From: Candidatus Saccharimonadota bacterium | GTDB lineage: Bacteria > Bacillota_I > Bacilli_A > Mycoplasmatales > Hepatoplasmataceae | Length of the DNA stretch: 32,000 nt | Assembly: GCF_000582535.1 (NCBI RefSeq) | Contig: NZ_CP006932.1 | Location: 600,001 to 632,000 of the forward strand | Reading direction: 5' to 3' | Program-made: the position numbers and the translations under genes | The notes under the pieces: model-generated | The model's input: only the letters and a program-made list of their open reading frames with translations | The model's database searches: none | Told to the model about the DNA's origin: nothing | Shown here: piece after piece, positions 144 to 32,000 of the stretch | Position numbering within the stretch: position 1 is the first letter of the stretch | Layout: each line of letters opens with the position of its first letter

Positions 144-152
144 ATAAATAAA

Positions 153-245
153 TGGTGGAGATGGAGGGATTCGAACCCCCGCACGACTTTCGCCGTCTCT
201 CGGTTTTCAAGACCGACCCCTTCAACCAGACTTGGGTACATCTCC
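153..245 (-). tRNA. tRNA-Ser (TGA), class II with long variable arm
   Basis: 93 nt. Reverse complement GGAGATGTACCCAAGTCTGGTTGAAGGGGTCGGTCTTGAAAACCGAGAGACGGCGAAAGTCGTGCGGGGGTTCGAATCCCTCCATCTCCACCA. Anticodon loop CTTGAAA. Confidence 0.9.
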
Positions 246-254
246 ATTTATAAT

Positions 255-331
255 TGGTGGTCCGTGCTGGACTTGAACCAGCGACCAACCGGTTATGAGC
301 CGGTGGCTCTAACCAACTGAGCTAACGGACC
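255..331 (-). tRNA. tRNA-Ile2 (CAT, presumably lysidine-modified)
   Basis: Reverse complement GGTCCGTTAGCTCAGTTGGTTAGAGCCACCGGCTCATAACCGGTTGGTCGCTGGTTCAAGTCCAGCACGGACCACCA. From memory it resembles the Bacillus-type tRNA-Ile(CAU). It also occupies the Ile slot of the conserved Arg-Pro-Ala-Met-Ile-Ser-fMet-Asp order. Ile versus Met identity cannot be proven from sequence alone. Confidence 0.7.
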
Positions 332-336
332 TTATT

Positions 337-413
337 TGGTAGCGGAAGAGGGACTTGAACCCCCGACCCATTGAATATGAACCAATTGCTCTAACCAACT
401 GAGCTATTCCGCC
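337..413 (-). tRNA. elongator tRNA-Met (CAT)
   Basis: Reverse complement GGCGGAATAGCTCAGTTGGTTAGAGCAATTGGTTCATATTCAATGGGTCGGGGGTTCAAGTCCCTCTTCCGCTACCA. The GGCGG...GGTTCATA...GGTCGGGGGTTC...CCGCTACCA framework matches Firmicute elongator tRNA-Met. Confidence 0.75.
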
Positions 414-420
414 AATAATA

Positions 421-496
421 TGGTGGAGCGAACGAGACTCGAACTCGCGACCCCATGCGTGCAAGGCATGTGCTCTACCAACTGAGCTATCACCCC
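421..496 (-). tRNA. tRNA-Ala (TGC)
   Basis: Reverse complement GGGGTGATAGCTCAGTTGGTAGAGCACATGCCTTGCACGCATGGGGTCGCGAGTTCGAGTCTCGTTCGCTCCACCA. G3:U70 identity pair is present. Anticodon loop CTTGCAC. Confidence 0.92.
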
Positions 497-501
497 ATAA
501 A

Positions 502-578
502 TGGTCGGAAAGACAAGACTTGAACTTGCGACCCCCGCGTCCCAAACGCGGTGCTCTGCCAAACTGAGCTACTTTCCG
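502..578 (-). tRNA. tRNA-Pro (TGG)
   Basis: Reverse complement CGGAAAGTAGCTCAGTTTGGCAGAGCACCGCGTTTGGGACGCGGGGGTCGCAAGTTCAAGTCTTGTCTTTCCGACCA. Anticodon loop TTTGGGA. Confidence 0.9.
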
Positions 579-582
579 ATAA

Positions 583-659
583 TGGCGCGCCCGATAGGAG
601 TCGAACCCACAACCCTCTGATCCGTAGTCAGATACTCTATCCAGTTGAGCTACAGGCGC
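583..659 (-). tRNA. tRNA-Arg (ACG)
   Basis: Reverse complement GCGCCTGTAGCTCAACTGGATAGAGTATCTGACTACGGATCAGAGGGTTGTGGGTTCGACTCCTATCGGGCGCGCCA. Anticodon stem TCTGA/TCAGA with loop CTACGGA. Confidence 0.9.
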
Positions 660-667
660 ATTATTAA

Positions 668-752
668 TGGTGCGGGTGAAGGGACTTGAACCCTTACGTC
701 CGAAGACACTAGATCCTAAGTCTAGCGTGTCTGCCTATTCCACCACACCCGC
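668..752 (-). tRNA. tRNA-Leu (TAG), class II
   Basis: 85 nt. Reverse complement GCGGGTGTGGTGGAATAGGCAGACACGCTAGACTTAGGATCTAGTGTCTTCGGACGTAAGGGTTCAAGTCCCTTCACCCGCACCA. Anticodon loop CTTAGGA. Long variable arm. Confidence 0.9.
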
Positions 753-755
753 ACA

Positions 756-831
756 TGGTGCCGTTGATAGGAATCGAACCTACGACCCACTGATTACAAG
801 TCAGTTGCTCTGCCTGCTGAGCTACAACGGC
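756..831 (-). tRNA. tRNA-Thr (TGT)
   Basis: Reverse complement GCCGTTGTAGCTCAGCAGGCAGAGCAACTGACTTGTAATCAGTGGGTCGTAGGTTCGATTCCTATCAACGGCACCA. Anticodon stem ACTGA/TCAGT with loop CTTGTAA. Confidence 0.9.
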
Positions 832-841
832 TGATGATCTT

Positions 842-917
842 TGGTGGGGCATATAGGACTTGAACCTATGACCTCCTGCTTGTAAGGCAGATGCTCTCCC
901 AACTGAGCTAATACCCC
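842..917 (-). tRNA. tRNA-Val (TAC)
   Basis: Reverse complement GGGGTATTAGCTCAGTTGGGAGAGCATCTGCCTTACAAGCAGGAGGTCATAGGTTCAAGTCCTATATGCCCCACCA. Anticodon loop CTTACAA. Confidence 0.9.
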
Positions 918-924
918 GAAAAAA

Positions 925-1000
925 TGGTGACCCATACGGGATTTGAACCCGTGCATGCTAGGATGAAAACCTAGTGTGTTAACCGCTTCACCAATGGGCC
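925..1000 (-). tRNA. tRNA-Glu (TTC)
   Basis: Reverse complement GGCCCATTGGTGAAGCGGTTAACACACTAGGTTTTCATCCTAGCATGCACGGGTTCAAATCCCGTATGGGTCACCA. Anticodon stem CTAGG/CCTAG with loop TTTTCAT. Confidence 0.9.
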
Positions 1001-1003
1001 TAA

Positions 1004-1078
1004 TGGCGCTCCGGAGAGGATTCGAACCTCCGACCAACTGGTTAACAGCCAGCTGCTCTACCACTGAGCTACCAGAGC
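1004..1078 (-). tRNA. tRNA-Asn (GTT), first gene of the operon
   Basis: Reverse complement GCTCTGGTAGCTCAGTGGTAGAGCAGCTGGCTGTTAACCAGTTGGTCGGAGGTTCGAATCCTCTCCGGAGCGCCA. Anticodon loop CTGTTAA. Confidence 0.9.
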
Positions 1079-1357: not shown

Positions 1358-2029
1358 ATGAAAAAAAAAGAAGTTATTATTATCGGAGTTGGAAGGTTTG
1401 CTGAGGCATTGATAAATGAGTTATCAAAATTTCAACACTTTACATTAATTGCAATTGATAATGATATTAAAAAACTTGCAGAAATATCAACATTTGTAGA
1501 TAAAACATTTGTTGGTGATTCTTCAAATGAACAATTTTTAAAAGAAGTGGGAATTAAAAATGCTGATATTTTTGTTGTAAGTATTGGAAATGATATTCAA
1601 AGTAATTTACTGACTTCATCAATTTTAAAAGACAATTTTAGCGGAACTGTAATTGCAAAAGCAGTAAGTAAAAGACATGTTGAGATTCTTAAAAAAATTG
1701 GTGTTGATGTTGTTATAATGCCTGATACAATAGCAGCAAAAAGAACAGCAATTGGTATTTTAAATCCTGTTCTTAATGCTGAATTATTTCAAAGAAATTC
1801 AGAATTAACAGAGCTTGATGGCGGAGTTTCAATTTTAACAATTGAAGCATTACCAGTATGAGAAGATAAAATGATCAAAGATCTTAAAATACCAAGAAAT
1901 ATTTCAATATTTTTAATTTATCGTAATAAAAAAGTTGTAATTGTAAATGGATTAACAAAAATTGCAAAAGGTGATCGAATTGCAGTTGTCGGAAGAAATG
2001 AAGATTTAAGTAAAATCGTTCAAAAATAA
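1358..2029 (+). CDS. ktrA: K+ uptake system regulatory subunit, TrkA/KtrA family (223 aa)
   Basis: ORF-track fragment 1358..1861 stops at an in-frame TGA (1859-1861). Under code 4 it reads on to TAA 2027-2029. N-terminal Rossmann motif VIIIGVGRFA. The C-terminal half (...IFLIYRNKKVVIVNGLTKIAKGDRIAVVGRNEDL) looks like a TrkA-C domain. Confidence 0.85.
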
Positions 2030-2033
2030 AATT

Positions 2034-2615
2034 TTAATCATCAAAACGAATTGAATTATCTCAATTATTTCAATTCTTTGTCTCTTGTAATTTTAAAAAT
2101 TTATTAAAAGAATGAATTATGATTTTTTTGCTTGTATTATAATGAAAATAAGGAATATATGGATTTGTATCATTTACTTTTGAAAAGCCTTTTAAAGGAA
2201 TATTTTTTTCTCTTTTGGTATTAGGATATTCAATATAAAGCTCTTTAAGTAAACCTTCAATATATATTTTTGCTCTCTTATTTTTTGTAATATTTAAAAT
2301 TCAAATTTCATCAGAAATTTTATTTTTTTTGTAGTTTTTTTCTTTGATAATATTTTGATTATTTAAAATAGCAAAATTTGCTCATTTAATACACTTTATT
2401 TCTTCTTTTCAAAAAGGGGAAATAAAATTAACAATTACATCAATATCTTTTCTTTTGAATTCTATTTTATTTAAAATTGTAAATCGCGTATTCTTTTCTT
2501 TTAAAAAATATTTAAAATTATTAATAAATCTTTCAACATTTTTTTGATCTTTTTTCGCATAATTTAAGTAAACATTAAATAATTTTTTCTCGTCTTTTGT
2601 TATTTTTTGTTTCAT
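2034..2615 (-). CDS. hypothetical protein (193 aa), no family recognised
   Basis: I checked the frame codon by codon. Fragment 2409..2615 ends at TGA. With 5 further TGA=Trp codons the frame stays open to TAA at 2034-2036, 4 nt from the convergent ktrA stop. Lys/Asn-rich, no TM segment seen. Confidence 0.6.
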
Positions 2616-2678
2616 TTTTAACCTAAGTAAATTAATTATTTTTGATAAATTTATTATACAACTAATGAATAATTACTT

Positions 2679-2840
2679 TTAAATCTTAAATTTTTTTTGT
2701 TTTAATTTTTTAATTGTGTAATCATAAAGTTCATTATTTGCTGTTTCATTTGCAATTTCACAAAAGGAAATAATATGTTCGGGATATTTTTTAAGAAATA
2801 TTTTGATTTCAATATTTTTTCTACTTGACACTTTTTTCAT
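2679..2840 (-). CDS. small hypothetical protein (53 aa)
   Basis: ATG at 2838-2840, TAA at 2679-2681. Reads MKKVSSRKNIEIKIFLKKYPEHIISFCEIANETANNELYDYTIKKLKQKKFKI. It falls below the ORF-track size cutoff. It fills the gap between ktrB and the 193-aa gene on the same strand. No homology recognised. Confidence 0.3.
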   Translation of the reverse strand: MKKVSSRKNIEIKIFLKKYPEHIISFCEIANETANNELYDYTIKKLKQKKFKI

Positions 2841-2906
2841 TTACAATTATTTACTTTCAAAATATACATTATAAGAAAATATTAATTTTTATCAAAAATT
2901 TTAATT

Positions 2907-4517
2907 TTAACCTAAACGGATTTTTGTTTCAAGATATTTTGAATTATAAACTCGATAATAATGATGTTTTTTTGAAAAAATATAATCACTACGATTTGAT
3001 TTGAATAAATTAAGAATATTATAAATTCCAAATTGACCAATAAACATTACAATAATTAAAACGATTGAAGCAAATATATCAATTAATTGAAGATTATTTG
3101 TTGCAAGTCCAGTTGTTCCATAAGCACTTGCAGAAATAAATAATGAATCTATATATGTAACATCTTCATTATCAATAACATTTTCTGGAATATAAATTAA
3201 AAAGGAAGATACAAAAACAATTAAAGCAGAAAAGATAAAAATTCTAAAAGCATCGCGGACATTTTCATTTGCAATTCTACGATTAAAACATGTTACTTCT
3301 TTTTTTCTTTTAATTTTAGCAATTAAAGCAACTATTAAAACAAAAAGGGTCGTAGTCCGAATTCCTCCCGCCGTTGATCCTGGACCAGAACCAATAAACA
3401 TCATTAAAATAAAAATAACTTTTGTTGCTTCTGAAAGATCATAAATATTAATAGTTGAAAATCCGGCGTTTCTTGTTGAAAATGTATTAAAAATTAAAGC
3501 AAATGATTTTGCTGAAGGATCTCCATAAAAATCACTTCGATAAAATGAATTTTGATCACTTATTAAAACATCAAATCCTTCTGCAATAAATACTAAAAAA
3601 AGACCAATAAAAGCAACACTAAAATAAGAAAGTGCTGCAATTTTTGTAAAAATCGAAAATCTAAATTTTTGTCCTTTTGCTTTATTTTTTAAATAATTAT
3701 AGCAATCATAAATTACTGCAAAACCCACTCCTCCGAAAACAAATAAAAAAATTGTAAGAAATTGAATAAAGTAATTTTGATAATAAACTGCAAGTGAATA
3801 ATCACCCGTAAAAATATCAAATCCCGCATTATTTATACTTGAACCAGCATGAAATATTCCTGTTCAAAAAGATTGTAAAAAATCCCCTTGTAAACCAAGA
3901 TTAATCGAAGCAGGAGTATTAGAATCTTCTGTTCAATTTGCTGGATATTTTGGATCAACTGAATAAAAAAGTCCAGCAAAAATTAAACCAAAAATTATTG
4001 TAAAAGAGACTGTAGATATAAAAGCTACTTTTGCAACTTCTAGGGCATGTCTATTTGTCTCTCCCCCAATTTCATTCATTATTTCATTTTGATCTTTTAT
4101 TGTAATTTTTTTTTCAAAGATATATTCAACAAGAATAACTTTAATTGTAAATCAACCAACTCCACCAATTAAAATTAAAATTAAAATTATTAATTGGCCA
4201 AAAAAATTATATGTATCACTTACTGATACAGTACTTAATCCAGTATCCGAAAAAGCAGAAGAAGAAATAAATAAAGAATTTATAAAACTAACATGTTCAA
4301 TATCATCTTTTTGAAAAATTGGAATATAAAGTAAAATTCCTCCCAAAATTGAAAAGAAAAGATATCATCCAAGAACCGTAAGGATAGCATGATTTTTATG
4401 AAGAAATCTTTTAAAAAATCCTCCCTCTTCTCATTTTTTATTCCTTACAATATTTTGCTTGGGAATTAAAATCTCATTATGATTGGCCTTATCTTTTTTT
4501 CCAAAAAATGATTTCAT
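2907..4517 (-). CDS. ktrB: K+ transporter membrane subunit, TrkH/KtrB family (536 aa)
   Basis: Fragments 2907..3728 and 4152..4346 and the ATG at 4515-4517 share one frame. 3729-3962 was checked codon by codon with no TAA/TAG. Multi-TM protein with repeated pore-loop-like motifs: SAFSDTGLS, NAGFDIF, NAGFSTI, YGTTGLAT. ATG lies 1 nt after the ligA stop. Confidence 0.85.
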
Positions 4518-4518
4518 A

Positions 4519-6573
<2,055 letters not shown>

Positions 6574-6576
6574 AAA

Positions 6577-8181
6577 CTAAATTTTTATATATGTATTAAT
6601 TCTATCATTTTGTTTAAAATTATAATTTATGAGAAAATTTGCAAAAAAGAATAAACAAGCAAAAACATAGATAAGTAAAATATCATCAAACATCGGAACA
6701 GGAAGATCAAAAAATATTACTCAAATTGGAATTGAAAACATATTAAATAATATCAAAAATAATAAAGCAAAAAATAAGAAAAAATCATTAAATTTTTTAT
6801 ATTTATCATCTTTATTTTGATAATAAAAACTTAAGAATATAAATAAATTTAAAGTAAATAAAATAATATAAAGCGGAATTGATAAATATTTAGAATCAAA
6901 ATTATTTGTTTCCTTAAATAATGGATCATTAAATAATAAAGTAAGATTATCAAAATAATTACTTGCTGAAATAGAAAGAGCAAGAATAATCCCTAAACTT
7001 AAAAGTAACGATAAAATAAATGTTGCATTTTTTTGATTTTCTTTTACTAAAATTTCAAATTTATGAATTTGTTTTTGGTTTTTTATTAATAAAACAAAAG
7101 TAAATGGAAGTAAAATAATTAATCCAAAAAAAGCAATAAAAATTAAAGCATAAAAAATATTTATTGCATAAAAATAAAAGCCGGCTTCAATAAATAATAC
7201 TAGTAGAAAATAATAAATAATATTAAAAATATTTTCTTTTGTATAAATTAAATAAAAAATCAAAGCAAAAGCTATTGATATTGTAAGAACAATTGCATAG
7301 TAAGTTGTAGTATAAAAAGATAAAGTTAAGATGATAATAAAACTAAGATAACCATTGTCTTTATAATAATTATTAACATATCTTAAAAAGATAATTATAA
7401 TTGCAAGAAAATTAAATAATAAATAAAATTTAATTGAAATTACATCTTGATAACCAAATACAAAAATTATAATTATTCCGAATATTAAAAATAAAAGAAT
7501 TGATCTTAAATTTTTTTCATCAATTATAAGTCCTTTTATTAAGAAAAGGATTAATAAAATATAAATAGCAGGAAGAAAATATTTTACGATAAGATCTAAA
7601 TCAATATTTAAATCCTTAGTAAGAATCATAATTCAATAATAATTTGTTTGAAATATTGCATAATAATCTAAATTATTATTATATGGTTTAAATAATTCTG
7701 TAACACTATTATTATTAATGATATTGTTAATTGTAAGATAATTTAAATCTTGCTCATAATTATTAAATCAACTTAAATTATTTTCCAAGATAATAAAAAT
7801 ATAAATAAAAAGAAATGTAAAAATGTAAATAAAAGCAAAATGAAATATTTCTTTTTTATTTATATTAAAACTTTGAAATCATCAGACTCGATAAGATATT
7901 AAAATATAAATAATTAAAACAACATCTATAATATCGGAAAAATAATTAAGATAATCAAGGTTATAATTTAAAACAATAATAATTGAATAAGAAAAAAAAG
8001 TAAGTAATTGATAAAAAAGAAAACCTATAAAAAATGCAAAATAATTATTATTTCTTTCAACCTTAAAATTATTTAAAATTATTTTCCCTAATCCATAGAA
8101 AATAAAAATTAAGAGAAAAAAAGCAAAAAATAATTTTAAGATTGAAAAATCTTCTTGAAAAATTATCCCAATTAAAAACAT
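6577..8181 (-). CDS. polytopic integral membrane protein, unknown function (534 aa)
   Basis: Fragments 6721..7629 and 7882..8181 share a frame. 7630-7881 and 6577-6720 were checked codon by codon, with only TGA and no TAA/TAG. Stop TAG at 6577-6579. Extremely Phe/Ile/Leu/Tyr-rich with many predicted TM helices. Stop is 3 nt from the ligA ATG. Confidence 0.7.
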
Positions 8182-8303
8182 ATAAAAATTATATACGATT
8201 GTTTTTTATTAGTTTAAATTTTAATTTATTTTATCAAGATAAAATAACTTATTTTTTAATAGTGATATAATTTATTTGTCGTAAAAGAAATAGGAAATAA
8301 ATA

Positions 8304-8912
8304 ATGGAGTATAAAAGAATAAAATTACCGTTCAAGTATGATTACTTAGAACCTTATATGGATAAACGAACAGTACAATTACATTATGAAAATCATCATG
8401 GTGGTTATGAAAGAAATCTTTTAACAAAAATCAAAGATGTTGGTTTTGAAAGAAGATATCCTACACTAGAAGATTTAATGCGTAATTATCAAAAAATTGA
8501 TAATCCAGAAATAAGAATTGCCGTTCGTGAATTTGGTGGTGGTTTAATAAATCATAATTTTTTATGAACTATTTTAAAACCTAAGGTTCAATTAAAAGAT
8601 GGAAATTTAAAAAACGCAATTGAAAAAGAATGAGGAAGTTTTGATAAATTTAAAGATGAATTTACAAGAGAAGTAAAAAATCTTTTTGGATCAGGATGAG
8701 TTTGATTAGTAAAAAGAAAAAATGGTTCTTTAAAAATCATTAAAACTTTTAATCAAGATAATCCTTGATTTTTAAAATTTACACCAATCATGGCGATTGA
8801 TCTTTGAGAACATTCTTATTATTTAAAATATAATAGTGATCGAATGGGATATCTTGATAATTATTGAAATACAATAAATTGAGATCAAGCAGAAGAATAT
8901 TACAATTCTTAA
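8304..8912 (+). CDS. sodA: Fe/Mn superoxide dismutase (202 aa)
   Basis: Fragment 8304..8567 continues through 7 TGA codons to TAA 8910-8912. SOD signatures: LPFKYDYLEPYMD, LHYENHHGGY, GGGLINHNFLW, AIDLWEHSYYLKY. The Trp of DLWEH is TGA at 8805-8807. Confidence 0.9.
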
Positions 8913-8950: not shown

Positions 8951-9014
8951 TATCTAAATAGTGAAAATATTTATTTATTTTAAAATATATAATTTTTTTA
9001 TGGAAAGAGATAAA

Positions 9015-9692
9015 ATGAAAATATATATGTACATTGATGAATCTGGAGTTTTACATAAAAATGACTATTATAATATTTTTTTATTCGGAGGAATATGTTT
9101 TATAAATGAAAATTTAAGAAATAAATGTAAATGGGAATATGGAAAAAGAGAATTAGAAATAAAAAATAAATATCCAAATAATAAAGAATTAAAAGGAAAT
9201 ACTTTAAAAAATAAACATAAAAAATATCTTTATAGTATATTAAATGGAGAGAAAACTTTTATTGGAAAAGTTAATATAAATAAATTAAAAGAAATTGATT
9301 GACAAAGAAAAAAATCAATTCAAAAATATAAAGATTGATTTTTAATGATGTTAATTAAAGAACAAGTAAATAATTTAATTATAAAAAAAGAAATAAATGT
9401 AAATGAAAAAAATATTTTTCACATTTTTGTTGATAATCAAAATATTTCAATAGATGAAAAAAATAATTTAACAAAAAAAATTAATCAAGAATTTTTTAAA
9501 GGAAAATATAATAATAAAAAAGAATTTATCAAACCAATTTTTAATCAATTCGGAAAAATAAAAGTAAAATATGTTAATTCTGAAACTAATGAATTAATAA
9601 GAGCTGCTGATATATTATGTAATAATAAATTTAATAAAATCAAGGAAGAAAAATCGATTGAAGGAAAACACGTAATTTTTTCTCACCCCTAA
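9015..9692 (+). CDS. DUF3800-like protein (225 aa; alternative starts ATG 9000 or GTG 8961)
   Basis: Fragments 8961..9302 and 9345..9692 are one frame joined by TGA codons (9300-9302 and a second in KDWF). N-terminus MKIYMYIDESGVL matches the DUF3800 YIDESG signature. C-terminal NELIRAADILCN matches its conserved xxADxxx motif. GGAAAGAG lies just upstream of ATG 9015. Assignment is from motif memory only. Confidence 0.65.
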
Positions 9693-9846
9693 TTAAAATA
9701 AAATTAATTTTTAAATGGACATTTATATTATATTTTTATTTAATTGTGTTAGAATTAATTTACAGTTAAGTTTATTAAAAACTGTTTGATATTTAAGTAA
9801 TGAATTTTTTGGTTTAACCGTAATCTAAGTACGGCATCTTAAATAG

Positions 9847-9876
9847 GAAAATTACCTTGATTGGTAATTTTTTTTA
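9847..9876. terminator. bidirectional hairpin terminator between the DUF3800 gene (+) and the phosphohexomutase gene (-)
   Basis: Stem ATTACC (9851-9856), loop TTGATT, stem GGTAAT (9863-9868). A-run upstream and T7 downstream. The minus-strand gene's stop codon (9878-9880) sits immediately beside it. Confidence 0.6.
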
Positions 9877-9877
9877 T

Positions 9878-11515
9878 TTAAAATTTAAAATCAGAAAAGT
9901 ATTTATGTAATGCTTTATATTCTTTTTTTGCTTTTTTAGGATCTTTTTGATATATATTAAAATAAATTCTTAAAATTGGTTCTGTTCCCGAAGGTCTCAA
10001 ACATATAAAACTATAATCATTAAAATATAAAAAAACAATATTTTGTTTTGGATATTTTTCATTTTCGATACGCATATCTATTATTTTTGTAATTTTTATA
10101 TTTAAAATCTTATGATTTTTTTTATTTGTGAAAATATCTAAAAAACGATTTAAATCAAAATTATCTTTTAATTTATGTGTGGTTTGCTTCATTACAAAAT
10201 ATCCATGTTTTTTTTGTAATGAATCTAATATTTCAATTAAATCAGTTCCTTTTTCTTGATAGTATTTTACCATCTCTAAAATTAAAATTAAATTTTGAAA
10301 AGAATCTTTATCTTTAGTCATCATATTAATTGTCGCCCCATTAGATTCTTCTCATACATATAAACATTTATTTTGATTATTTTCTTTTTCTTTTACAATT
10401 TTGAATAATTCTTTAAAACCAGTAAGTGATTTATAAACTTTGACATTTTTTTCTTGTAACAAAAAATCAGCAAAATTAGAAGTAACTATTGATCTTACTA
10501 CAAAATAATTGTATTTTTTAAGATTTTCTCTTTCAAGTAAATAATTAATTGATAAAATAGAAATTTCATTTCCTGAAAATATTTTTCATTTTTTTGCTTT
10601 TTTTAAAGCCACACCAAATCGATCACCATCAGGATCTACCGCAAAAATTAAATCAACATTATTTTTTTCACTTTCTTTTATCGCTAATTTAAAAGATTTT
10701 TCAGCTTGTGGATTTGGAACTTTTGAATTTGTAAAATTAGGATCAAAACTTTCTTGTTCTTTTACTAAATAATAATCAACACCCATTTTCTTTAAAACCA
10801 TTTCTGCAATATTTAAACTAGCTCCATGATGATTTGTAAATGTTAATTTTAAATTCTTATAATTATTTAAATGCTTTTCAAAGCCAATTTCATCTAAAAG
10901 TTTTTTTATATAAAATTCATAATATTTATGATCTAAAAATAAAAGATCGTTTTCACTATCCTCTAAATTAAAATCATATTTTTCTTTTTTAAAAAAATAA
11001 TTAATTTTATCAATAATATCTTGATCTATCTGCTTTCCAATTGAATCATAAAATTTAAGTCCACTATATTCAGGAGGATTATGAGAAGCAGTAAAATTAA
11101 TTCCTCCAATAAAATTATAATTTGCAATTAAAAAAGATAAAAAAGGTGTTGTTTCCAATTGATTATTATAAGGAAGATAAGCTTTTACTCCAAGTTTTTT
11201 AGCAACATTAAAAGCAATTGTAGAAAAATAAAGATTATCTTTACGATTATCCTTAAAGATTAAAATCTTTGATTCTTTTACATTCTTTTCACCATAAATT
11301 GCAAAAAGAGCTAATAAATAACTTTTTACATATTTTGCAACAACATATTTATTAATAAAAGAAGGACCTAATCCTCTTTTTGCTCTTATTCCTGCTGTTC
11401 CAAAATTTAATTTATGATTAAAAGCTTCGTTTATTTTTTTTTCTGATAAATTTTTTAAAATTAGTTTTTCTTTTATATTTAAATTTTCTAATCATTCAGA
11501 ATATTCTTTATTCAT
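9878..11515 (-). CDS. phosphoglucomutase/phosphomannomutase (alpha-D-phosphohexomutase family, 545 aa)
   Basis: Fragments 9878..10324, 10586..11158 and the ATG at 11513-11515 are in one frame. Active-site loop FTASHNP. Metal loop AVDPDGDRFGV. Phosphate-binding loop RPSGTEPILRIY. Confidence 0.9.
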
Positions 11516-21003: not shown

Positions 21004-22074
21004 TTAAATTTCTCTAGTATATTTATCAGCTAGATTATCAATTCCTTTTATATATTCAACTTCTATTTTTATGTTATTTTCATCAATTAAAGAAAAGGCT
21101 TTTTTCATATAATCTTTTGCTTTTGTTTTACTATTTATTTTTCTTGTTTTTATTCAGGAAATAATGGTTTTATTATCATCATAAAAAAATGCTTTTAATA
21201 TTTTGTTTTTTAATAAATATTTAATAAATTCTAAAAAAGCAAATGCTTCTATTTCATTTGATCATTCACAATCAGGATTTTCACTTCTATATAATAATTT
21301 TCCTTTATTATCAACTATAGCAATTAATCCGACATTATTTTTATTAGAAGAAATAGCACCATCGATATAAAAAATTTTTTGTTTAATTTTATTATTATTT
21401 AAATCTTTCTTTTTATTTTTTAATAAATTATCTAATTCTATAAAATAAGAAAATGTTGTAATTTTTTCAAATAAATCTATAAATTCTTCTTCTGAAATTA
21501 ATTTATTACCTTTATGTCTAATTTCCCCATTATTATTTAATTTAATAAAAACATCATTAACAATTTTTTTACCAAAAAAAGATTTCAATTTTTCTCTATT
21601 TTCTCTTCCATCTAAAAAGGAATAAAAAAGACCTAATTTTTTACATTTTATTTTAAAATCATTTTCTTCTAAAATTTGATAAATTAATTTATTTATATCT
21701 TCTATTATTGTAAATTTTTTCTTATTTTCATTTAAAAATGATTCTATTAAATTGATTATTTTTTTTGCACTATTTTCAAGATTTTTATTGTTTAATCTCT
21801 TTGTTGAAAAAATATGTTTTTTAATTTTTTTTAAAAGATCAATTGTACTTTCAAAATCTAATTCTTCAAAAATTCTTTCTAGCTTTTTGATATTTGATAA
21901 TTTGTCAAAACTTTTATCATTATTTGAATCAATTGCTTTATTTTTAAATTCTTTAATAAAATTATTAAACTTTAATTTATCTGAATATATTAAAGTTGTT
22001 ACTCCGTTGTTTTCCTTATCGATTAATAATTTTAATATTTCAACTATTAAATTATCCAATTCATATTTTTCCAT
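21004..22074 (-). CDS. protein with unknown N-terminal domain (about 230 aa) and C-terminal RNase H-like domain (356 aa)
   Basis: Fragment 21262..22074 continues through TGA to TAA 21004-21006, checked codon by codon. The C-terminal part reads IFYIDGAISS...VGLIAIV...WSNEIEAFAFLEF...AFFYDDNKTIISWI...KGIDNLADKY. That gives a D/E/D/D spacing like type-1 RNase H. Confidence 0.6.
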
Positions 22075-22086
22075 TTACAAATACTT

Positions 22087-22863
22087 TTATTCTCCCCTAA
22101 GTATTAATCAATCTGCAATTTCAGCATAGATTTTTTGATTTGTTTCTTGATATTTATATCTTGCTCATTTTGCTCAAAAATAAGCAGTAAAAATTCTTGC
22201 TATCTTAAATTTTTTAAAATCAAAATTACTTGTTAATTTAATATAAGTATTTAAAAATATTTCTTCTTGTTTTTTTGTTAATTTTCTTTTTACAACAAAA
22301 CTAGCAAGATCAAAATATTTACTATTTAATCCACCATATTCATAATCAATAATTTTAATTTGATCATCTTTTAAAATTAAAATATTACCATCAACAATAT
22401 CATTATTTGCATAACAAAGATCCTTATTAATTATTTTTAATCCTTCTTTTAAAATTAGATTTTCATCTTTATATTGCAAAATTTTCTCCTGCTTATTCAA
22501 AAAATTTCAAGTATCTAAAAAATTTGGTGCTTTAATTTTAGTATTTTTATTAATTTTTATATCATGAAGACTTTTAATTTCTTTTGCACAATTTATTAAA
22601 ATCTTATCATTAACATTATCTATAAAAAAAGGTTTATGATCTATTTTTTCTGCACAGAAGTAATTTTTACCTATTTCCAAAGAATTAAAAACTTTTAATT
22701 CTTTTAAAATTAAAATTTCTTGATTTTGATAAATTTTTGTAAATTCATTATTAACAAAAAATTTGCAAATAATTTTATCTTTAAAATAAACATTATTTGA
22801 TAATCCAATTTTGTCTTTAATTCAAGTTTTATCTTTCTTGATTATTTTTTCATTTCTTTCCAT
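22087..22863 (-). CDS. choline kinase / aminoglycoside phosphotransferase-family kinase (258 aa)
   Basis: Fragment 22174..22500 begins at an internal TTG. I traced the frame codon by codon up to ATG 22861-22863 and down through 3 TGA to TAA 22087-22089. N-terminal IGLSNNVYF (GxxN nucleotide loop). Brenner-like NNDIVDGNILI. IIDYEYGG motif. Confidence 0.7.
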
Positions 22864-24454
22864 AATTATTACTTGCTTCAATAAAACTTTCAAATAAAGG
22901 ATCTAATTTAAAAATTTTTGTATTAAATTCGGGATGAAATTGAACAGCAATAAAAAAATCATTTTTTGGATATTCCACTATTTCAACTAAATTAGTTTGT
23001 GGATTTATTCCAGAAAATACCAAACCATTTTTTTCTAAAATATTTTTATATTGATTATTAAATTCATAACGATGTCTATGTCTTTGATTTATTAAATCTT
23101 TTTTATAAATTTTGCTTGCTATTGTATTGGGAAAAATTTTACATTCATACTCGCCCAAACGCATTGTTCCCCCAAAATTTTTTAAATCTTGATCTTCCAA
23201 TAAATGAATAATAAATTTTTGTTTCTTTTCAGGATTTAATTCTTGATGATATAAATTTAAATTTAAAACATTATTTGCAAATTCTAAAATTAATAATTGC
23301 ATTCCAAAACAAATTCCTAATAAAGGAATATTATTTTCCCTTGCATACTTAATTGTTTTTATTTTTCCATCTGTTCCATCTGTTCCAAATCCTCCAGAAA
23401 TAATTATTCCACTATAATTATTTAATTTTTTGAGATCCAAAGATTTAGAATCTAACAAATCTATTTTTAAATCTATTTTTTTATAAATAGAAATAATTTT
23501 TAAACTCTCAATTATCGAAAGATAAGAATCTTTTAAATTATGGTATTTACCAACAATTGCAATTCTTAATTTATCTTTATTTTGATAAGAGATTAAATTA
23601 TTAAATAAATCATATTTTTCAATATTTTTATTTATTAATTTTAAATTTAAAATTTTAGCAATTTTTTGATCAATTTTTTCTTCCATTAATTTTTTAGGAA
23701 TTTGATATACATTTGGTAAATTTTCTAATTCCAAAATATATTCTTTATTTACACCACAATTAATAGAAATTTTATTGAATACTTCTTGATTATTTATTTT
23801 ATTTTCTGTTCTTACAATTAAAAAATTAGGAAATACACCAAGACTATGTAATTCTTTAATACTATGTTGAAAAGGTTTGCTTTTATATTCTTTATTAATT
23901 GAAAGAAAAGGAACAAAACCAATATGAATATTTATTACATTTTCTCTTTCAAATTGTAATTGTCTAATTGCTTCAAAATAGGGAATAGATTCAATATCTC
24001 CTACAGTTCCACCTATTTCCACAATTAAAAGATCATTATTTTTCAAATTATTTAAAATTAAATCAATTATTTCATTAATAACATGAGGAATAATTTGCAC
24101 AGTTTTACCTAAATATTTTCCTCTTCTTTCTTTTTCAATTAAATTCCTATATATTTTTCCAGAACTAATTGAAGAATTTTTTGAAAGATTTTGATTTATA
24201 AATCTTTCATAATGACCTATATCAAGATCTGTTTCTCCTCCGTCCTTAGTAACAAATACTTCACCGTGTTCAATAGGAGAAATTGTTCCTGGATCAACAT
24301 TTAAATAAGGATCAAATTTCATCATATTAACTTTTAGTCCTCTTTCTTTAAACATAAAAGCTAAGGAAGCAGCGAAAATTCCCTTTCCTAATGATGATAA
24401 AACTCCTCCTGTAATAAAAATTATTTTGCCATTTATTTTTCTGCTATTTTTCAT
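22829..24454 (-). CDS. pyrG: CTP synthase PyrG (541 aa)
   Basis: ORF 22850..24454 ends at TGA. With code 4 it adds WKNNQER and stops at TAA 22829-22831. N-terminal IFITGGVLSSLGKGI. Glutamine amidotransferase GICFGMQ and FHPEF. Confidence 0.95.
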
Positions 24455-24462
24455 AATAAAAT

Positions 24463-24490
24463 AATTATAAAATAAATTTATTTTATAATT
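24463..24490. repeat. 28-bp perfect A/T palindrome between the RCC1-gene stop and the pyrG start
   Basis: AATTATAAAATAAA|TTTATTTTATAATT. The halves are exact reverse complements. Confidence 0.8.
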
Positions 24491-24498
24491 AGTAATTC

Positions 24499-27132
24499 TT
24501 AATTTTGGAAATCATTTATTTTATTTTCATTTTCAATAATTTTTTCTTTTAATTTTAAATTTATTCAAAATAAAATTGTTGTAATTAAAATAAAAGCTAT
24601 TAAAAAACCAACAATAAAAAATAATATTCAAAAATTTCGATCTTGTTTTTTTGTATTAACATTTCCATTTTCTGAAATATCTAAAGATTGATCAAAATTT
24701 TTAGTAAAACTTAGATTTTCAAAATTATAATTTTTATTACTTTCTAAATTCTCTATTTCAAAAAAAAATTTATATTTTTCCGTTCCTCTTTCAGTTCCAC
24801 TAGAAATATGAACAGAACTTTTTAAAACATAAGTAGAACTATAAATATTACCTTCTGAATCTTTTAAATATAGATTTTCATTTAAATTAAAATTTAAAAA
24901 AATTGGTTCTCTATTTTGTTCGTCGGAGTAAATTAAATTATCAATAGTAATTTCATATATTAATAAATTAGTTGTAATTGATGTTTCATTTATTACAAAA
25001 CTATTTTTAACAAATTGTTTATTTACAGATAATGTCTTAATTTCAAGAGAATTAGATAAAGTAATTATTTCAGAATTAGGATCATTAGGATCATTAAGTG
25101 AAATTTTAGAAAATACATATTGAGTGTTAGTATCTAAATTATTTTGTAAAAATTCTAGTTGATAATTCTGTGTTCCATTAATTACACCATTTGAGATAAC
25201 ATTTAAAGTAACAAAAGAGGAATTATATATATTCTCGTTTTGATCAATTAATCAAATTCCATTATTTACATCATATTGCGTGAAATTTGTTTCATTTTCA
25301 TTTGGTTTCAAATTATCAATTTCAATATTAAATTCAAATGATGTTGTGGTAATTGAATTTTCTATAATAAAAATAGAATTTTCTTTAATTATTGGTGTTG
25401 TTTTTTCTGTTTGAAAATACATAGGATCTTGATCAATGGTATATTTATATTCACCATTTTCATAAAAATATTGAATTGAATCAATTTGATAATTTGTTTC
25501 TGAATTTAAATCTGTTAGTGTAATTTCATAGGAATCATCAATTACAAATTCTTGCGAATTATAAATATTTTGATCTAAATCAGTATAATTTACTTTAATT
25601 TTTCGTTCAGAAGAAGTGTAATCTAATAAATTAAATTCTTCACCATTTTGACTAAAATCTAATAAAATTGTTACATCTTCTTGATTTGGATCTAAAATTT
25701 GATAATTGGAAATTAAGTAATCAGAATCAGAAGAAGGAAATATTGAAAATATTGAACTAAATTCCTTTAAATTGGAATTATCATAATAATTTGTTAATTG
25801 ATAATTAGAATTATCACCACAACCATATAAAATATCACTTTCTCCATCATTATTTAAATCAGCTAATAAATAACTATTTTTAGAACCAAAATAAAAATCT
25901 TTTAATTTAAAATTATTAGTATTAAAAATTAATTGAGGAAAATAAATTCCATTTTCATTTAAATTATAATTCCCAAGTTGACCATATTTATTTGATCCTC
26001 AAATATAAAGACTATCTGCATATTGATCATTATTTTGATCAATTAGCACACCCGAATTATATAAACTAATTGATAAATCAATTATATTTCCGTTTCAATT
26101 ATCTTGTCCTTGTGGTGTTATTTTTTGTGGAAATAAAGAATTATTTGTTGTTCCATTTCCCAGTTGGCCATTACTATTATCTCCTCATATATAAATATTA
26201 TCACCATAATTATCAGAATCTATATCATCTATAATAATTGAAATATTATTTGCACTTGCTTCTAAATCAATTATATTTCCGTTTCAATTATCTTGTCCTT
26301 GTGGTGTTATTTTTTGTGGAAATAAAGAATTATTTGTTGTTCCATTTCCAAGTTGGCCATTACTATTATCTCCTCAAGTATAAATGGTATCACCATAATT
26401 ATCTTGATCAGTATCTATTAAAACAGAAGAAAAATATTCCCCTAAGGCAATATCAACAATATTTCCTCCTCAATTATTTTTTTCTTTTGGAGTTACTTTT
26501 GTTGGAATAGATATAGTTCCTCCTATTGTTCCATTTCCAATTTGGCCTTTGCTATTATCTCCTCATATATATAATGTATCAGCATACCCATCATTATTAG
26601 TATCAACAGAAATTGCTGTATTAGTATATGATAAATCTAAATCAATAATCTCTCCTTTTTTATTATTTTTAGAAGAATAAGAAATTACAGGAAATAAAAT
26701 ATTATTTTCACTATCATTTATTTGATTTGAATTATTATCTCCTCACACATATAATGTATCTCCATAATTATCATTATCGGTATCAACTAAAACAGACGAA
26801 TTATATCCGTCAAGCGATAAATCAACAATATTTCCATTTCAATCTTCTTGATTTTTTGGAGTTATCAAAATAGGTTTTGCGATATTTACATTTTCAGAAC
26901 CATTTCCAATTTGACCATATTGATTATCTCCTCACATATAAAGAGTATCTGCATAATTATCATTATCGGTATCAATAATAATTCCAGAATGATAATATCC
27001 TGCATCACCACTTATAATGTTATTTTGATCATAAAAATCAGAATTAATATTTTTATTGTTAAAGTTTATTTTAAAAATGCTTAAATTTAGAAACAAAAAA
27101 GGAAGCATCAAAAAAGCTACAAATTTTCTCAT
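24499..27132 (-). CDS. predicted surface-anchored RCC1-repeat beta-propeller protein (877 aa)
   Basis: The entire frame was translated codon by codon with no TAA/TAG and 13 TGA=Trp. Signal-peptide-like MRKFVAFLMLPFLFLNLSIF. Seven RCC1-type repeats: YMWGDNQYGQIGNG, YVWGDNNSNQI, YIWGDNSKGQIGNG, YTWGDNSNGQLGNG, YIWGDNSNGQLGNG, YIWGSNKYGQLGN, LYGCGDNSNYQL. Three C-terminal modules of about 110 aa each. TM helix FWILFFIVGFLIAFILITTILFW. Stop TAA 24499-24501. Confidence 0.85.
26074..26376. repeat. near-identical tandem duplication (period 189 bp = one 63-aa RCC1 blade) inside the RCC1 gene
   Basis: 26074-26187 and 26263-26376 are identical over 114 bp, except C/A at 26161 versus 26350. A further shared TCACCATAATTATC follows after a short divergent patch. 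Confidence 0.9.
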
Positions 27133-27155
27133 AATAAATCTCTTAAAGAAAATAA

Positions 27156-27185
27156 AAATTTAAAAAATTTAAATTTTTTAAATTT
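27156..27185. repeat. 30-bp perfect A/T palindrome in the divergent RCC1-gene/metG intergenic region
   Basis: AAATTTAAAAAATTT|AAATTTTTTAAATTT. The halves are exact reverse complements. Confidence 0.8.
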
Positions 27186-27263: not shown

Positions 27264-28756
<1,493 letters not shown>

Positions 28757-28760
<4 letters not shown>

Positions 28761-29668
28761 TTAAACTCTAAATTTGTATCAATTAATTTAACTTTGCTGA
28801 AATCAATTTTATTTAAATTTGCAGATTTTAATTTTACTGATTTAAATTCTGCTCCTTCTAAATTTGCTTTTGCAAGATTTGCATAACTAAGATCAACATT
28901 TTCTAGTCTTGCATTTTTAAAATTCACATAAGCAAGATTTGTATAAGATAAATTAATATTTTTAAGATTAGCTTCACTAAAATCAACAAATTTTAAGTTT
29001 GATTTATTAAAATTAATATCTTTAAGGTTGGATTTAATAAAACTTGAATAAACTAAATTAGAAGATGATAAATTTACATCATTTAGTCTTGCTTCATTAA
29101 ATAAAGATTTTTTAAGATTGCAATGATCTAAGGAAACTTTATCTAAAATAGATTTATTAAAATTAGAATTAAGTAATCCTAAATAATTTATTTTTACTTC
29201 TTTAAAATTTGCTTTTGTAAAATTAACTTTTACAAAATTTTCATTTAAAAAACTAAATAAAAATTTTTTATTATTTATTTCTACATTATTAAATTTTGCA
29301 TCAGTAAAATTAACTTTTGTTAATCTTACTTTTTTTAAGTTTACATCAGTAAGACTTGATTTATTAAATTTTGCATCAGTAAAATTAACTTTTACAAAAT
29401 TTGTTTTTATCAAATTTGTATTAATAAAATTAGAATCATTAAGATTTGATTTTAAAAAATTTGCTTCTTTTATATTTGAATCTTCCAAATTTGCTTCTTT
29501 TAAATTTGTTTTTTTAAAAATTGAAAAATCTAAATTTGCTCTACTTAAATTAATTTTGTTCAAATTAGATTTTAAAAAAACTGAACCTTGTAAATTCTTT
29601 TCAGAAAAATTTACTCCTGTTAAATTTTTTTTCTTTAATTCTGTTTTATTAATATTATTATTATCCAT
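28757..29668 (-). CDS. pentapeptide-repeat protein (303 aa, essentially all repeat)
   Basis: Intact ORF with no TGA. About 57 consecutive A(D/N)(L/F)xx pentads, for example NLTGV NFSEK NLQGS VFLKS NLNKI NLSRA NLDFS. AAGGA lies 6 nt upstream of the ATG. The start is 11 nt downstream of the helicase stop. Confidence 0.9.
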
Positions 29669-29679
29669 ATTTTTCCTTA

Positions 29680-32000
29680 TTAATTATTTTTGATTAAATT
29701 TTCAATATTTTTTAATTCTTGTTTTTGATTATTAAATCAATTGTTTATTCAAACACGATAGAATTTATATCCTCTTTCATTTAAAAAATCTTGTTTTGAA
29801 ATATCTCTTTTTCGGACAGATTTATAAGAATTTTTGATTATTTCATCTGTTTCGATCAAAAGACTTACATTATTATCTTGGTCGTAAATTAAAAAATCAA
29901 TATTATATCCATAATTATCATCTTGATTTGCTACATTTAAATTATATTTATTTGTTATTTTTTTTAATTCAAAATAAAAATCTTTTTCAAAATTTGATTT
30001 AAATTCTTTTAATTTAAATCTTTCATTTAATGATAAATTATTATTTAATTCCATACAGTATTTTAAAAATCTATAAAGTATATATATTCCACTTTCAAGA
30101 TTGTGTTTATGTAAATTATTACGAATAAAAAAATTTTCAAAATCTATTTGTTTTAATGAAGTTACTACATACATTTTTAATCTTGATCTTGTAATTGCTA
30201 CATTAATTCTATTTATTCCTCCTTCTTGATTAATTGGTCCAAAATTAAAAAGAACTTTTCCTTCTTCATTTTTTCCATATAAAGTAGAAAAAATAATAAT
30301 ATCTCTTTCATCTCCTTGCACATTTTCAATGTTCTTTACAAATAAATTAACATCTCTACTATTTATTCAATTTGCAAATTCAAGATCAGAAAAACCAATA
30401 CTTGCAATTTGTTCTAAAATATATTTTTCTTGTCTTGAATTCATTGTAATTATTCCAATTGATTTATCTTTAAATTTTTCTGCATTTTTAATTGAAATAA
30501 GAATTTCAATAATCTTATCTGATTCTTTTTTATTCAAACTATTTTTATATAATGGATCATTTATTTGATAATATTCAATTGGTTGATAATCTATATTTTT
30601 ATTATTTTTAGTAATAAAAGTAAGATTACTATTATAAAAAATTTTATTAGAATATTCAATTAATTCCTTATAATCAGAACGATAATGATGTTCCAACATT
30701 ATATGAGGAAATTTTGCTTTTGCATAAGTTAATAAAGATAATTTATTATCTATTAAATTATCATCTTCATATTTTTCAAGTTCTTCTGTTGTATTTCTAG
30801 AAATAAAAAAATTTGTTGGTGATAATTGTTTTTCGTCTCCCAAAATTACAACTTTTTTAGATCTTTCTATTGAAGGTAAACTTCTCTCAATAAACATTTG
30901 TGAAGCTTCATCAAAAATTACTAAATCAAATTGATCTTCTAATGTAAAAATACTTGAAATTGTTTCAGGATTTAATAATCAAATTTTATATAAATTTTTG
31001 AAATCTTGTGCTTCGTTTTGTAAAAATACTTTTACTCCTCATTTTTTCTTAACATTAAAAATTATTCTTTTAAATTGATCACTTGTTTTTCTAAAATTAA
31101 TTCAAAAATTCATTGCAAGATAATATTTTGCAATTTTGCTAAATTTATCAATTTTATCTTTTCTTAAATTTAAAAAATCCTTGTAATTATCTTTTCATTT
31201 AAAAACTTGTTCTTCAATTTTAAATAAAAAGTCAAATTTATTTATTCTTTCACGAAAGATTTTAAATTCAATAATTTCTAATAATTTGTCATATTTTATT
31301 TTATTTTTCTTAGTAAAATCTAAAAATTCTTTTAAAAAATAGAATTGACCATCAGTAAAATTTTTTATTATTTGAAATTCTTTAAAACTTAAATTTAAGT
31401 TAGCTTCCAGATTTTTATATTTTGTTATTAAATTTTTTTGTTCTTCTAGATTTTTATTAAATAAATTATTATATTTTAAAATAATTTTATTTTTTAAAAG
31501 ATCATAATCTTTTATTTCATTAAAAGACTTTTTAAGAATAATAATCATTTTAGCAATACTTTGTTCTACTTGTAATTCTTTTTTTTGATTTCCATATTTT
31601 CGATCATATTTAATTTTATTAATCAAAAATTCCTTCTTTGCTAAATCAAAATCACTTTTTAAATTTTTATATTCTAATTTAAAATTATCATTTTCTAGTA
31701 AATATTTAGAAAATAATTTTTCCTTAAAATCATTTTTTAACAGTGAAAAAAAATATTTTTTCAAAATAGGATGAATTTTCGAAAAATAAATTAAATCATG
31801 AGAATAGGTAAACAATTTTTCAAAAAGATCTAATGAATGAGATGCGACAAAAGAATTAAGTTTATCATTTTCAAAATATTTTAATATTTCGTCATATCTA
31901 GAATCATTTATATTTTTTCACAAATCATTCCAAATAAGTTTTAAATTTTTTTCTTCTAAAATTAATTCTTCTTTTTTAATATCAATTAAACTATTAAAGT
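29680..32000 (-). CDS. SF1 (Upf1/DNA2-like, AAA_11/AAA_12-type) helicase fused to a C-terminal Vsr/DUF559-like endonuclease domain; 5' end outside the window
   Basis: Fragments 29749..30321, 30367..30897 and 31195..31815 are in one frame. The junctions and 31816-32000 were checked codon by codon. Motif II VIFDEASQM. ILGDEKQLSPT. Motifs V/VI VQGDERDIIIFS and INVAITRSR. C-terminal ...NIDFLIY...LLIETDE...RKRDISKQDFLNERGYKFYRVW. Stop TAA 29680-29682. Walker A not yet seen, presumably upstream of 32000. Confidence 0.85.

Follow-up and report, generated by a model that had tools for sequence, protein, structure and literature searches.

Hhe has been described as a single gene that combines helicase and nuclease domains (bioRxiv 10.1101/2024.10.10.617714). 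For ProA, named in NCBIfam as an anti-phage protein, and PDC-S37, a candidate single-gene system in PADLOC, no descriptive literature was found in the library searched, and searches for the MTES_1575 domain likewise yielded nothing usable. Among pentapeptide-repeat proteins (PRPs), MfpA and Qnr mimic DNA by virtue of their electrostatics and of a rod-like dimer formed through a C-terminal helix (PMC8145042), and in the Hailong system pentapeptide repeats are part of an anti-phage protein, HalA (PMC13586616), where they are fused to a potassium-channel domain and the protein is paired with a nucleotidyltransferase; the literature on Hailong and pentapeptide repeats offered nothing further of use. 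We analyzed a 32,000-nt stretch of a Hepatoplasma genome (hereafter, the window), in which the first-pass annotation had proposed a candidate two-gene system, namely a helicase-nuclease kept inactive or targeted by a DNA-mimic-like PRP. Our results favor, with a probability of roughly 0.62, a stand-alone helicase-nuclease of the Hhe/ProA/PDC-S37 kind followed by a separate, Hepatoplasma-specific orphan PRP.

The window has a GC content of about 20% and has to be read with genetic code 4: TGA occurs in frame 8 times in the helicase gene and nowhere in the PRP gene; translation with table 4 recovered both frames. The helicase frame runs on the minus strand from position 31998 down to a TAA stop (29682-29680) and is open at the window edge. 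The reported 11-nt gap with a ribosome-binding site was read directly from the DNA: the AAGGA in the spacer TAAGGAAAAAT ends 5 nt ahead of the PRP start codon (ATG, 29668-29666). On its other side, the PRP gene is convergent with metG, such that the stop codons of both genes overlap, and metG occupies the same convergent position in Candidatus Hepatoplasma crinochetorum strain Ps (74% identity). The GC content of the helicase and PRP genes (0.18 each; neighbors, 0.19-0.21) matches that of the rest of the genome, and horizontal acquisition was rejected on the basis of composition. A scan of positions 28400-30400 detected no terminator-like sites and 13 promoter-like sites compared to 20.7 expected from shuffling, that is, no enrichment, but at 18% GC such a scan of the junction is uninformative. 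The shared strand, the short gap, the AAGGA motif and the lack of a terminator make it likely that the two genes are co-transcribed, possibly with coupled translation, and in the favored reading this downstream position and probable co-transcription reflect no more than the compactness of the genome. The two genes, their motifs and their tight same-strand junction, as originally noted, are real, with matches far beyond chance and intact orthologs in strain Ps.

Features of the helicase-PRP locus (coordinates in the window; residue numbers refer to the translated helicase fragment)
Feature	Coordinates	Strand	Evidence
metG (methionyl-tRNA synthetase), context	27276..28760	+	ORF and N-terminal HIGH motif
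Pentapeptide-repeat protein (PRP), 303 aa	28757..29668	-	Pfam Pentapeptide 4.4e-48, AlphaFold2, Foldseek
Spacer TAAGGAAAAAT, 11 nt	29669..29679	-	Sequence; Shine-Dalgarno-like AAGGA at 29678-29674
Helicase-nuclease, C-terminal part, 772 codons and stop	29680..32000	-	Code-4 translation; runs past the window edge
MTES_1575 (PD-(D/E)xK / Vsr-like) nuclease, D...ExD...K intact	29698..29991	-	PF18741, residues 670-767
AAA_12 (RecA2), motifs V and VI (VQGDERD, NVAITR)	30157..30714	-	Pfam AAA_12, residues 429-614, 1.4e-15
AAA_11 segment, motifs II (DEASQ) and III (GDEKQL)	30814..30948	-	Pfam AAA_11, residues 351-395, 1.3e-07

The upstream gene had been annotated as a Upf1/DNA2-like helicase with a C-terminal restriction-endonuclease-like domain, and the Pfam searches bear this out, with AAA_11, AAA_12 and MTES_1575 all detected above chance (for the latter, 4.2e-15 and 56 bits, above the cut-off of 38.2). 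The DEASQ and GDEKQL motifs are invariant across the helicase alignment, the core blocks of AAA_12 are 90-92% identical to those of strain Ps, and the nuclease signature IDF...IETD...YKS...RKRD is shared with strain Ps and canonical family members; the nuclease motifs quoted in the annotation are present in the translation (LLIETDEIIKNSYKSVRKRD...ERGYKFYRVW). In the strain Ps ortholog (1351 aa), the fragment corresponds to residues 579-1350, with 62% identity, and from this ortholog, which contains the Walker A motif GPPGTGKS, we infer the N-terminal part beyond the window and a full length of about 1350 aa. The PDB sequences matched by the helicase include IGHMBP2, Upf1/NAM7, Sen1 and ZNFX1; the PHROGs matches are limited to families without known function, and the closest sequences to the window proteins in genome and protein collections show 62-69% identity. 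Judged by these motifs and profile matches, the protein is an SF1B, Upf1-like helicase fused to an MTES_1575 nuclease.

A relationship with single-protein anti-phage helicase-nucleases had also been suggested, and indeed the best HMM matches are PDC-S37, ProA and Hhe. PADLOC models matched both the window fragment (PDC-S37, 2e-96; Hhe, 3e-58) and the full-length strain Ps ortholog (1e-116 and 3e-64, respectively), and the top NCBIfam matches were ProA (295 bits for the fragment, 357 for strain Ps) and Hhe (251 and 276 bits). Both the fragment and the full-length ortholog fall far short of the equivalog cut-offs (2000 bits for Hhe, NF042953; 1500 bits for ProA, NF058533), so that function cannot be simply transferred from either family. 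The similarity to Hhe (NF042953, PDLC02194) spans the entire C-terminal part (residues 355-765), with the same order of an AAA_11/AAA_12 SF1 motor, in which the ATPase and translocation motifs are intact, and a C-terminal Vsr/MTES_1575-type nuclease that retains the catalytic residues; neither has a conserved partner gene. Unlike Hhe, the profile of which comprises about 1800-1900 positions, the window protein has only about 1350 aa, and its gene, located on the chromosome of a minimal genome, has been inherited vertically. The PDC-S37 and ProA profiles match best and reach into the Lys/Glu-rich insert that precedes motif II, although the best stretch for PDC-S37 (PDLC05009) covers profile positions 732-1340 of 1550 only. 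The N-terminal domain DUF4011 (PF13195), the expected position of which lies outside the window, was not detected by the Pfam search in the strain Ps ortholog at E<=0.01, is weak in the two closest relatives (P0003 and P0004) and is present in most of the other homologs. Taken at the level of sequence, the helicase-nuclease is a diverged relative of the single-gene Hhe/ProA/PDC-S37 proteins.

The product of the downstream gene consists, as annotated, entirely of pentapeptide repeats: the Pfam Pentapeptide domain (4.4e-48) matches in 8 stretches, and about 58 pentapeptides can be counted, with a single register break near residues 133-140. [quoted passage not shown] Tandem Repeats Finder detected only weak repeats in the gene (periods of 15, 30 and 75 nt, 69-82% matches), without any sign of recent repeat expansion. 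The PRP is collinear with its strain Ps ortholog at 49% identity; identity among the exposed residues is 77% in coils 9-60 and 30% in the middle. The reading frame is intact in both species and, considering the conserved exposed surface of coils 9-60, the PRP is, by these evolutionary signs, functional. A search of 1.84 billion representatives identified no further ortholog; all 56,458 PRP matches show at most 39% identity and differ in size, which, by this comparison, makes the protein a Hepatoplasma-specific orphan. No PADLOC model matched it, and the idea that the PRP is a defense component thus gained no support from the defense library. The positive charge and the conserved end surfaces of the beta-helix suggest a protein-binding or nucleic-acid-binding scaffold.

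The proposal that this protein mimics DNA does not survive the comparison with known mimics. [quoted passage not shown] The window also encodes acidic proteins, with pI of 4.05 and 4.23. All scores against the HMMs of PRP families are far under the respective cut-offs, including Qnr (85 bits, cut-off 240), MfpA (49, 360), PipB (92, 274), PipB2 (76, 354) and HalA (46, 250). In contrast to HalA, the PRP contains no membrane or channel domain and has no nucleotidyltransferase partner. Given the strong basicity and the absence of the dimerization helix, together with the model and the family scores, we conclude that the PRP is not a DNA mimic; annotation of the gene as encoding an orphan basic pentapeptide-repeat protein fits these data, whereas Qnr-like DNA mimic does not.

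We then asked whether the gene pair is conserved. In a phmmer scan covering all ORFs of 92 loci, a PRP gene on the same strand beside the helicase was found only in L001, the strain Ps locus, and among about 95 loci of relatives the same pair occurs only in this collinear genome. In the sister mollicute clade, no PRP gene adjoins the helicase, which is followed instead by ybeY-dgkA-cdd-era or other genes, and the pair is absent from about 90 further loci. Neighbor clustering across the 92 loci revealed no recurrent partner family beside the helicase, and the Pentapeptide domain was not detected within any of the 98 helicase homologs (0/98). A single candidate for a second case, L079, has a convergent PRP gene beside a 1845-aa helicase; it was rejected because the gene is on the opposite strand, encodes a different kind of PRP and belongs to an organism with 54.5% GC, and is best considered a chance or defense-island neighbor. 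The absence of the adjacency from related genomes had been named beforehand as an observation that refutes the two-gene system, and outside the genus the idea fails; the claim of a conserved system shrinks to an adjacency in the window and strain Ps. Because the helicase family works alone and the PRP is basic and restricted to Hepatoplasma, a new two-gene "DNA-mimic" system is not supported.

The stand-alone helicase-nuclease, which we consider the best explanation, has a divergent N-terminal region, followed by the Walker A motif, a long Lys/Glu-rich insert, the SF1B motor and the C-terminal MTES_1575 nuclease. By analogy with the family, the protein is predicted to act alone: its motor would use ATP to move along a nucleic-acid strand and in this way deliver the fused nuclease to foreign or aberrant DNA, or license it there. 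In Hepatoplasmataceae, its gene is old, chromosomal and vertically inherited rather than part of a recently acquired island, as indicated by the joint clade of the Hepatoplasma and Tyloplasma-like helicases (bootstrap 100%), the latter from other arthropod-associated mollicutes, and by the matching GC content. The PRP is not a conserved partner of the helicase family, and the two genes are probably functionally independent. If so, a helicase-nuclease that is diverged, Hhe/PDC-S37-like and inherited vertically is to be added to the annotation of Hepatoplasmataceae, the published genome papers of which do not list it among the defense genes.

Independence of the two genes is challenged by the possibility that the PRP was recruited on the Hepatoplasma branch to serve the helicase-nuclease as an accessory subunit, be it a regulator, an adaptor or an inhibitor. 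Such a module would work not through DNA mimicry but via the conserved N- and C-terminal coils of the PRP or through nucleic-acid binding by its basic surface. Both Hepatoplasma genomes that are accessible keep the pair, with a gap of 11 nt and no terminator in the window and a gap of 8 nt in strain Ps, and co-transcription is likely; this junction persists although the housekeeping proteins of the two species share no more than 74-83% identity and two gene indels lie nearby, as would also be expected of a real operon partner; the exposed surface of coils 9-60 is as conserved as these housekeeping proteins. Moreover, within the mollicute clade the intact E-x-D box of the nuclease coincides with the presence of the PRP: it is intact in both PRP-bearing Hepatoplasma proteins and eroded in the PRP-less Tyloplasma-like clade, another observation that counts against independence. 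Some immunity proteins, among them Hailong HalA and Orc/Cdc6 fusions, are also known to contain pentapeptide domains. However, only two Hepatoplasma genomes could be compared (the window and strain Ps), and these are collinear over the whole block, so that the persistence of the adjacency says little; the correlation with the nuclease motif amounts to a single evolutionary event. The co-occurrence is missing in the sister clade and in the other loci, many of which encode canonical nuclease motifs, the validated relatives function as single genes, and the PRP has diverged more quickly than the helicase (49% vs 62% identity). Given the probable co-transcription and the conserved end surfaces, a Hepatoplasma-specific partnership is possible, albeit at long odds. 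The more specific scenario, in which an ancestral Hhe-like enzyme gained a dedicated 15-coil basic PRP, encoded on the same mRNA and docking via its terminal coils to gate or target a still-active nuclease, appears less probable still. A genuine partnership would reveal a new function for the pentapeptide-repeat fold, and the PRP would be the first pentapeptide-repeat protein to regulate a helicase-nuclease, by a mechanism other than DNA mimicry.

Another alternative, which we regard as unlikely, is that the helicase-nuclease is not an anti-phage protein but a housekeeping enzyme of nucleic-acid quality control or repair, possibly linked to YbeY-dependent RNA processing, with the PRP being unrelated. 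The gene was inherited vertically, and none of the accessible members of the Hepatoplasma and Tyloplasma-like clade lacks it, although their genomes measure about 0.6 Mb. In 3 relatives, it lies directly upstream of ybeY-dgkA-cdd-era, and in two of these its stop codon overlaps the ybeY start; RNA is a common substrate of Upf1-like motors, as seen in the PDB relatives, and in Pseudomonas aeruginosa a large DUF4011 gene belongs to the core genome of all isolates (PMC10250203). A type of helicase-nuclease known from defense islands is a core gene in 0.6-Mb symbionts and, in sister lineages, adjoins the ybeY operon; this retention and neighborhood raise the question of housekeeping roles for some members of the family. 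On the other side, anti-phage families account for all of the strongest profile matches, and some homologs adjoin a type III restriction-modification system and a Schlafen-like helicase, or else AAA_15/HNH genes. The ybeY linkage is lost in Hepatoplasma, and in Tyloplasma a hairpin followed by a T-run lies between the helicase gene and ybeY. Nor does conservation argue against a defense role, since CRISPR-Cas9 is also retained throughout Hepatoplasmataceae (PMC10928387).

Finally, that the PRP has a role of its own, as a DNA gyrase protector of the Qnr/MfpA type or a host-directed effector of an extracellular gut symbiont, is very unlikely: the weak matches to Qnr, MfpA, PipB and PipB2, the Foldseek matches to MfpA, QnrB1 and AlbG, a mid-helix irregularity (residues 133-150) loosely resembling the Qnr loops, and the discussion of further Hepatoplasma repeat proteins as candidates for host interaction (PMC10928387) are outweighed by scores far under all four cut-offs, the basic charge, the missing dimerization helix, a sequence without a visible signal peptide or transmembrane segment, and best structural matches to generic PRPs, HetL and synthetic solenoids.

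The helicase-nuclease gene and the gene for the pentapeptide-repeat protein (PRP) directly downstream of it match the first-pass annotation in every checkable detail. Pfam search identified AAA_11, AAA_12 and MTES_1575 in the former and Pentapeptide in eight stretches (4.4e-48) in the latter, which consists of ~58 consecutive pentapeptides with the consensus (V/S/A)-N-(L/F)-x-x and a single register break near residues 133-140. The PRP stop codon overlaps that of the convergent metG gene.

Features of the window, with positions on the 32,000-nt stretch
Feature	Position	Strand	Description
tRNA gene cluster	1-1078	-	13 tRNA genes
DUF3800-domain gene	8958-9692	+	Pfam 8.7e-12
DUF3800-I RNA motif	9755-9882	+	Rfam RF02969
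RVT_3 protein	21004-22074	-	356 aa
pyrG and choline/ethanolamine-kinase-like gene	22087-24520	-	~74-nt overlap, different frames
RCC1-like protein	24499-27159	-	877 aa, pI 4.05
PRP ORF	29668-28757	-	303 aa, ATG start
Spacer helicase-PRP	between TAA 29682-29680 and PRP ATG	-	TAAGGAAAAAT, 11 nt, includes AAGGA
Helicase-nuclease	31998-29680	-	772 codons, open at window edge; stop TAA 29682-29680

Long continuous ORFs are obtained in the window only with TGA translated as Trp, and the helicase frame contains 8 such codons. The GC content is ~20% throughout, except for the start, where the dense tRNA cluster (with three tRNA-Met(CAT) genes) raises the GC content of the first kilobase to 52%. [quoted passage not shown]

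The complete helicase ortholog in strain Ps (1351 aa) consists of an N-terminal region of ~340 aa, Walker A (GPPGTGKS), a ~550-aa Lys/Glu-rich insert, motif II (DEASQ), motif III, AAA_12 and MTES_1575; the window protein corresponds to residues 579-1350 (62% identity), and in the alignment every helicase motif is preserved in both species, as are the PD-(D/E)xK-type nuclease residues (ID...IExD...K). Among proteins of solved structure, those related in sequence are Upf1/NAM7, IGHMBP2, Sen1 and ZNFX1, which places the helicase in the Upf1-like SF1B group. The top matches in defense-oriented libraries are PDC-S37 (1e-116), ProA (357 bits) and Hhe (276 bits), the latter two scores being far under the NCBIfam equivalog cut-offs (1500 and 2000 bits, respectively), so that the protein, diverged and shorter, is related to these families but does not belong to them. 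Protein search yielded 98 homologs (E<=1e-10) from many phyla, nearly all of 1200-1350 aa, with the architecture DUF4011-AAA_11-AAA_12-(HRDC)-MTES_1575, and the pentapeptide domain was found in none of the 98. The Hepatoplasma protein is a new, diverged representative of an already known helicase-nuclease type.

The AlphaFold2 model of the PRP is a confident, continuous beta-helix (pLDDT 90.7, pTM 0.87) with one irregular stretch of lower confidence (~residues 133-150) and no terminal alpha-helix. In a Foldseek search, generic PRPs (HetL, synthetic solenoids, Np275/276) lead, with MfpA, QnrB1 and AlbG lower down; PADLOC gave no match. Bit scores for the specific NCBIfam PRP families are all far under the cut-offs (HetL 122/260, Qnr 85/240, MfpA 49/360, PipB 92/274, HalA 46/250). 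Both PRPs are strongly basic (window: pI 9.70, net +18; strain Ps: pI 10.10, net +29); the local proteome tends to be basic, yet acidic proteins (pI 4.05 and 4.23) are encoded in the same window. In MfpA and Qnr, DNA mimicry depends on a DNA-like electrostatic character and on dimerization into a rod through C-terminal helices (PMC8145042). Both features are missing from the Hepatoplasma PRP, and the earlier reading of this protein as a Qnr/MfpA-like DNA mimic is therefore rejected. No ortholog was detected by word-indexed search or when 1.84 billion representatives were scanned exhaustively with HMMER; the best of the 56,458 HMMER matches are giant multi-repeat proteins with <=39% identity. 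The PRP is an orphan inside a superfamily of very large size. It is nevertheless constrained: the window and strain Ps have intact, collinear ORFs (49% identity). Conservation is focused on the N-terminal coils (77% of exposed residues identical) and the C-terminal coils, compared with only 30% of exposed positions in the middle, and this clustering suggests binding surfaces at both ends of the helix.

In strain Ps, the order is the same as in the window: helicase, an 8-nt gap, a 302-aa PRP and convergent metG. Retention of the pair says little because the whole block is collinear, save for two gene indels. With gaps of only 8-11 nt, co-transcription can reasonably be inferred; a site scan of the junction found no terminator-like element and no enrichment of promoter-like hexamers. 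Co-transcription does not by itself imply shared function in a compact genome. When all ORFs at 80 metagenomic and 8 genomic loci of helicase relatives were translated (codes 11 and 4) and searched with both PRPs, an adjacent same-strand PRP was found in L001 only. A different arrangement was observed on a metagenomic contig (L079; GC 54.5%), where a 1845-aa helicase of the same family (1586-7123, +) is followed 23 nt on by a convergent gene (7146-8777, -) for an unrelated 543-aa pentapeptide-repeat protein with a C-terminal domain of ~120 aa that Pfam does not recognize.

In a neighbor-joining tree, the two Hepatoplasma helicases are sister (bootstrap 100%) to a clade of Ca. Tyloplasma litorale and other arthropod-associated code-4 assemblies. 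In three genomes of this clade, ybeY-dgkA-cdd-era comes next after the helicase, with overlapping stop and start codons in two of the three, and in a fourth a DHH phosphoesterase gene; none of the four has a PRP gene at this position. Other Mycoplasmatota homologs adjoin a type III R-M system and a Schlafen-like helicase or sit among metabolic genes. In the mollicute clade, ybeY was the only recurrent partner family that neighbor clustering across loci revealed, so the helicase family behaves as a single-gene unit, in agreement with the literature, where Hhe is described as one gene encoding both helicase and nuclease domains (bioRxiv 10.1101/2024.10.10.617714). With the pair absent from the sister clade and the PRP basic, the proposed two-gene system of a helicase-nuclease and a DNA-mimic regulator finds no support. 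Judging from family membership and intact motifs, the helicase-nuclease most likely works autonomously, as Hhe-type proteins do: an SF1B translocase powered by ATP and linked to a PD-(D/E)xK nuclease would survey foreign or aberrant nucleic acid, and the PRP would be a genus-specific beta-helix scaffold functioning separately.

A partnership confined to Hepatoplasma is unlikely, albeit the best of the alternatives; it fits the tight junction, the conserved PRP ends and the coincidence that, within the mollicute clade, only the lineage with a PRP has an intact nuclease E-x-D box. Recruitment of the basic PRP to regulate an Hhe-like enzyme in this lineage is likewise unlikely. In three Tyloplasma-like loci (L009, L010 and L012), the E-x-D box is eroded, with a 2-residue deletion, and these helicases may be motor-only, possibly with an RNA-related role, given this erosion and the ybeY linkage. 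A housekeeping role of the helicase tied to the ybeY operon is considered improbable; it is supported by vertical inheritance and by a DUF4011 gene that belongs to the Pseudomonas aeruginosa core genome (PMC10250203). Independent action of the PRP in gyrase protection or as a host effector is least probable.

Elsewhere in the window, the DUF3800-I RNA motif (46.4 bits; gathering score 44.2) directly follows a DUF3800-domain gene, so this known RNA-gene association occurs in a minimal mollicute genome. Between metG and pyrG, a gene with no equivalent at this spot in strain Ps encodes an acidic protein that matches RCC1-repeat beta-propellers; its N-terminus is hydrophobic, and a transmembrane segment lies at the C-terminal end. 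Similar RCC1-like proteins have been discussed as candidates for host interaction (PMC10928387). RVT_3, an RNase H-like domain (9.5e-05), was detected at the C-terminus of another protein; between mnmG and the choline-kinase-like gene, the collinear segment of strain Ps contains no equivalent of it. The overlapping pyrG and choline/ethanolamine-kinase-like genes correspond to one continuous 788-aa ORF in strain Ps (L001 13884-16250), a difference that could be due to gene fusion in one lineage or to a frameshift.
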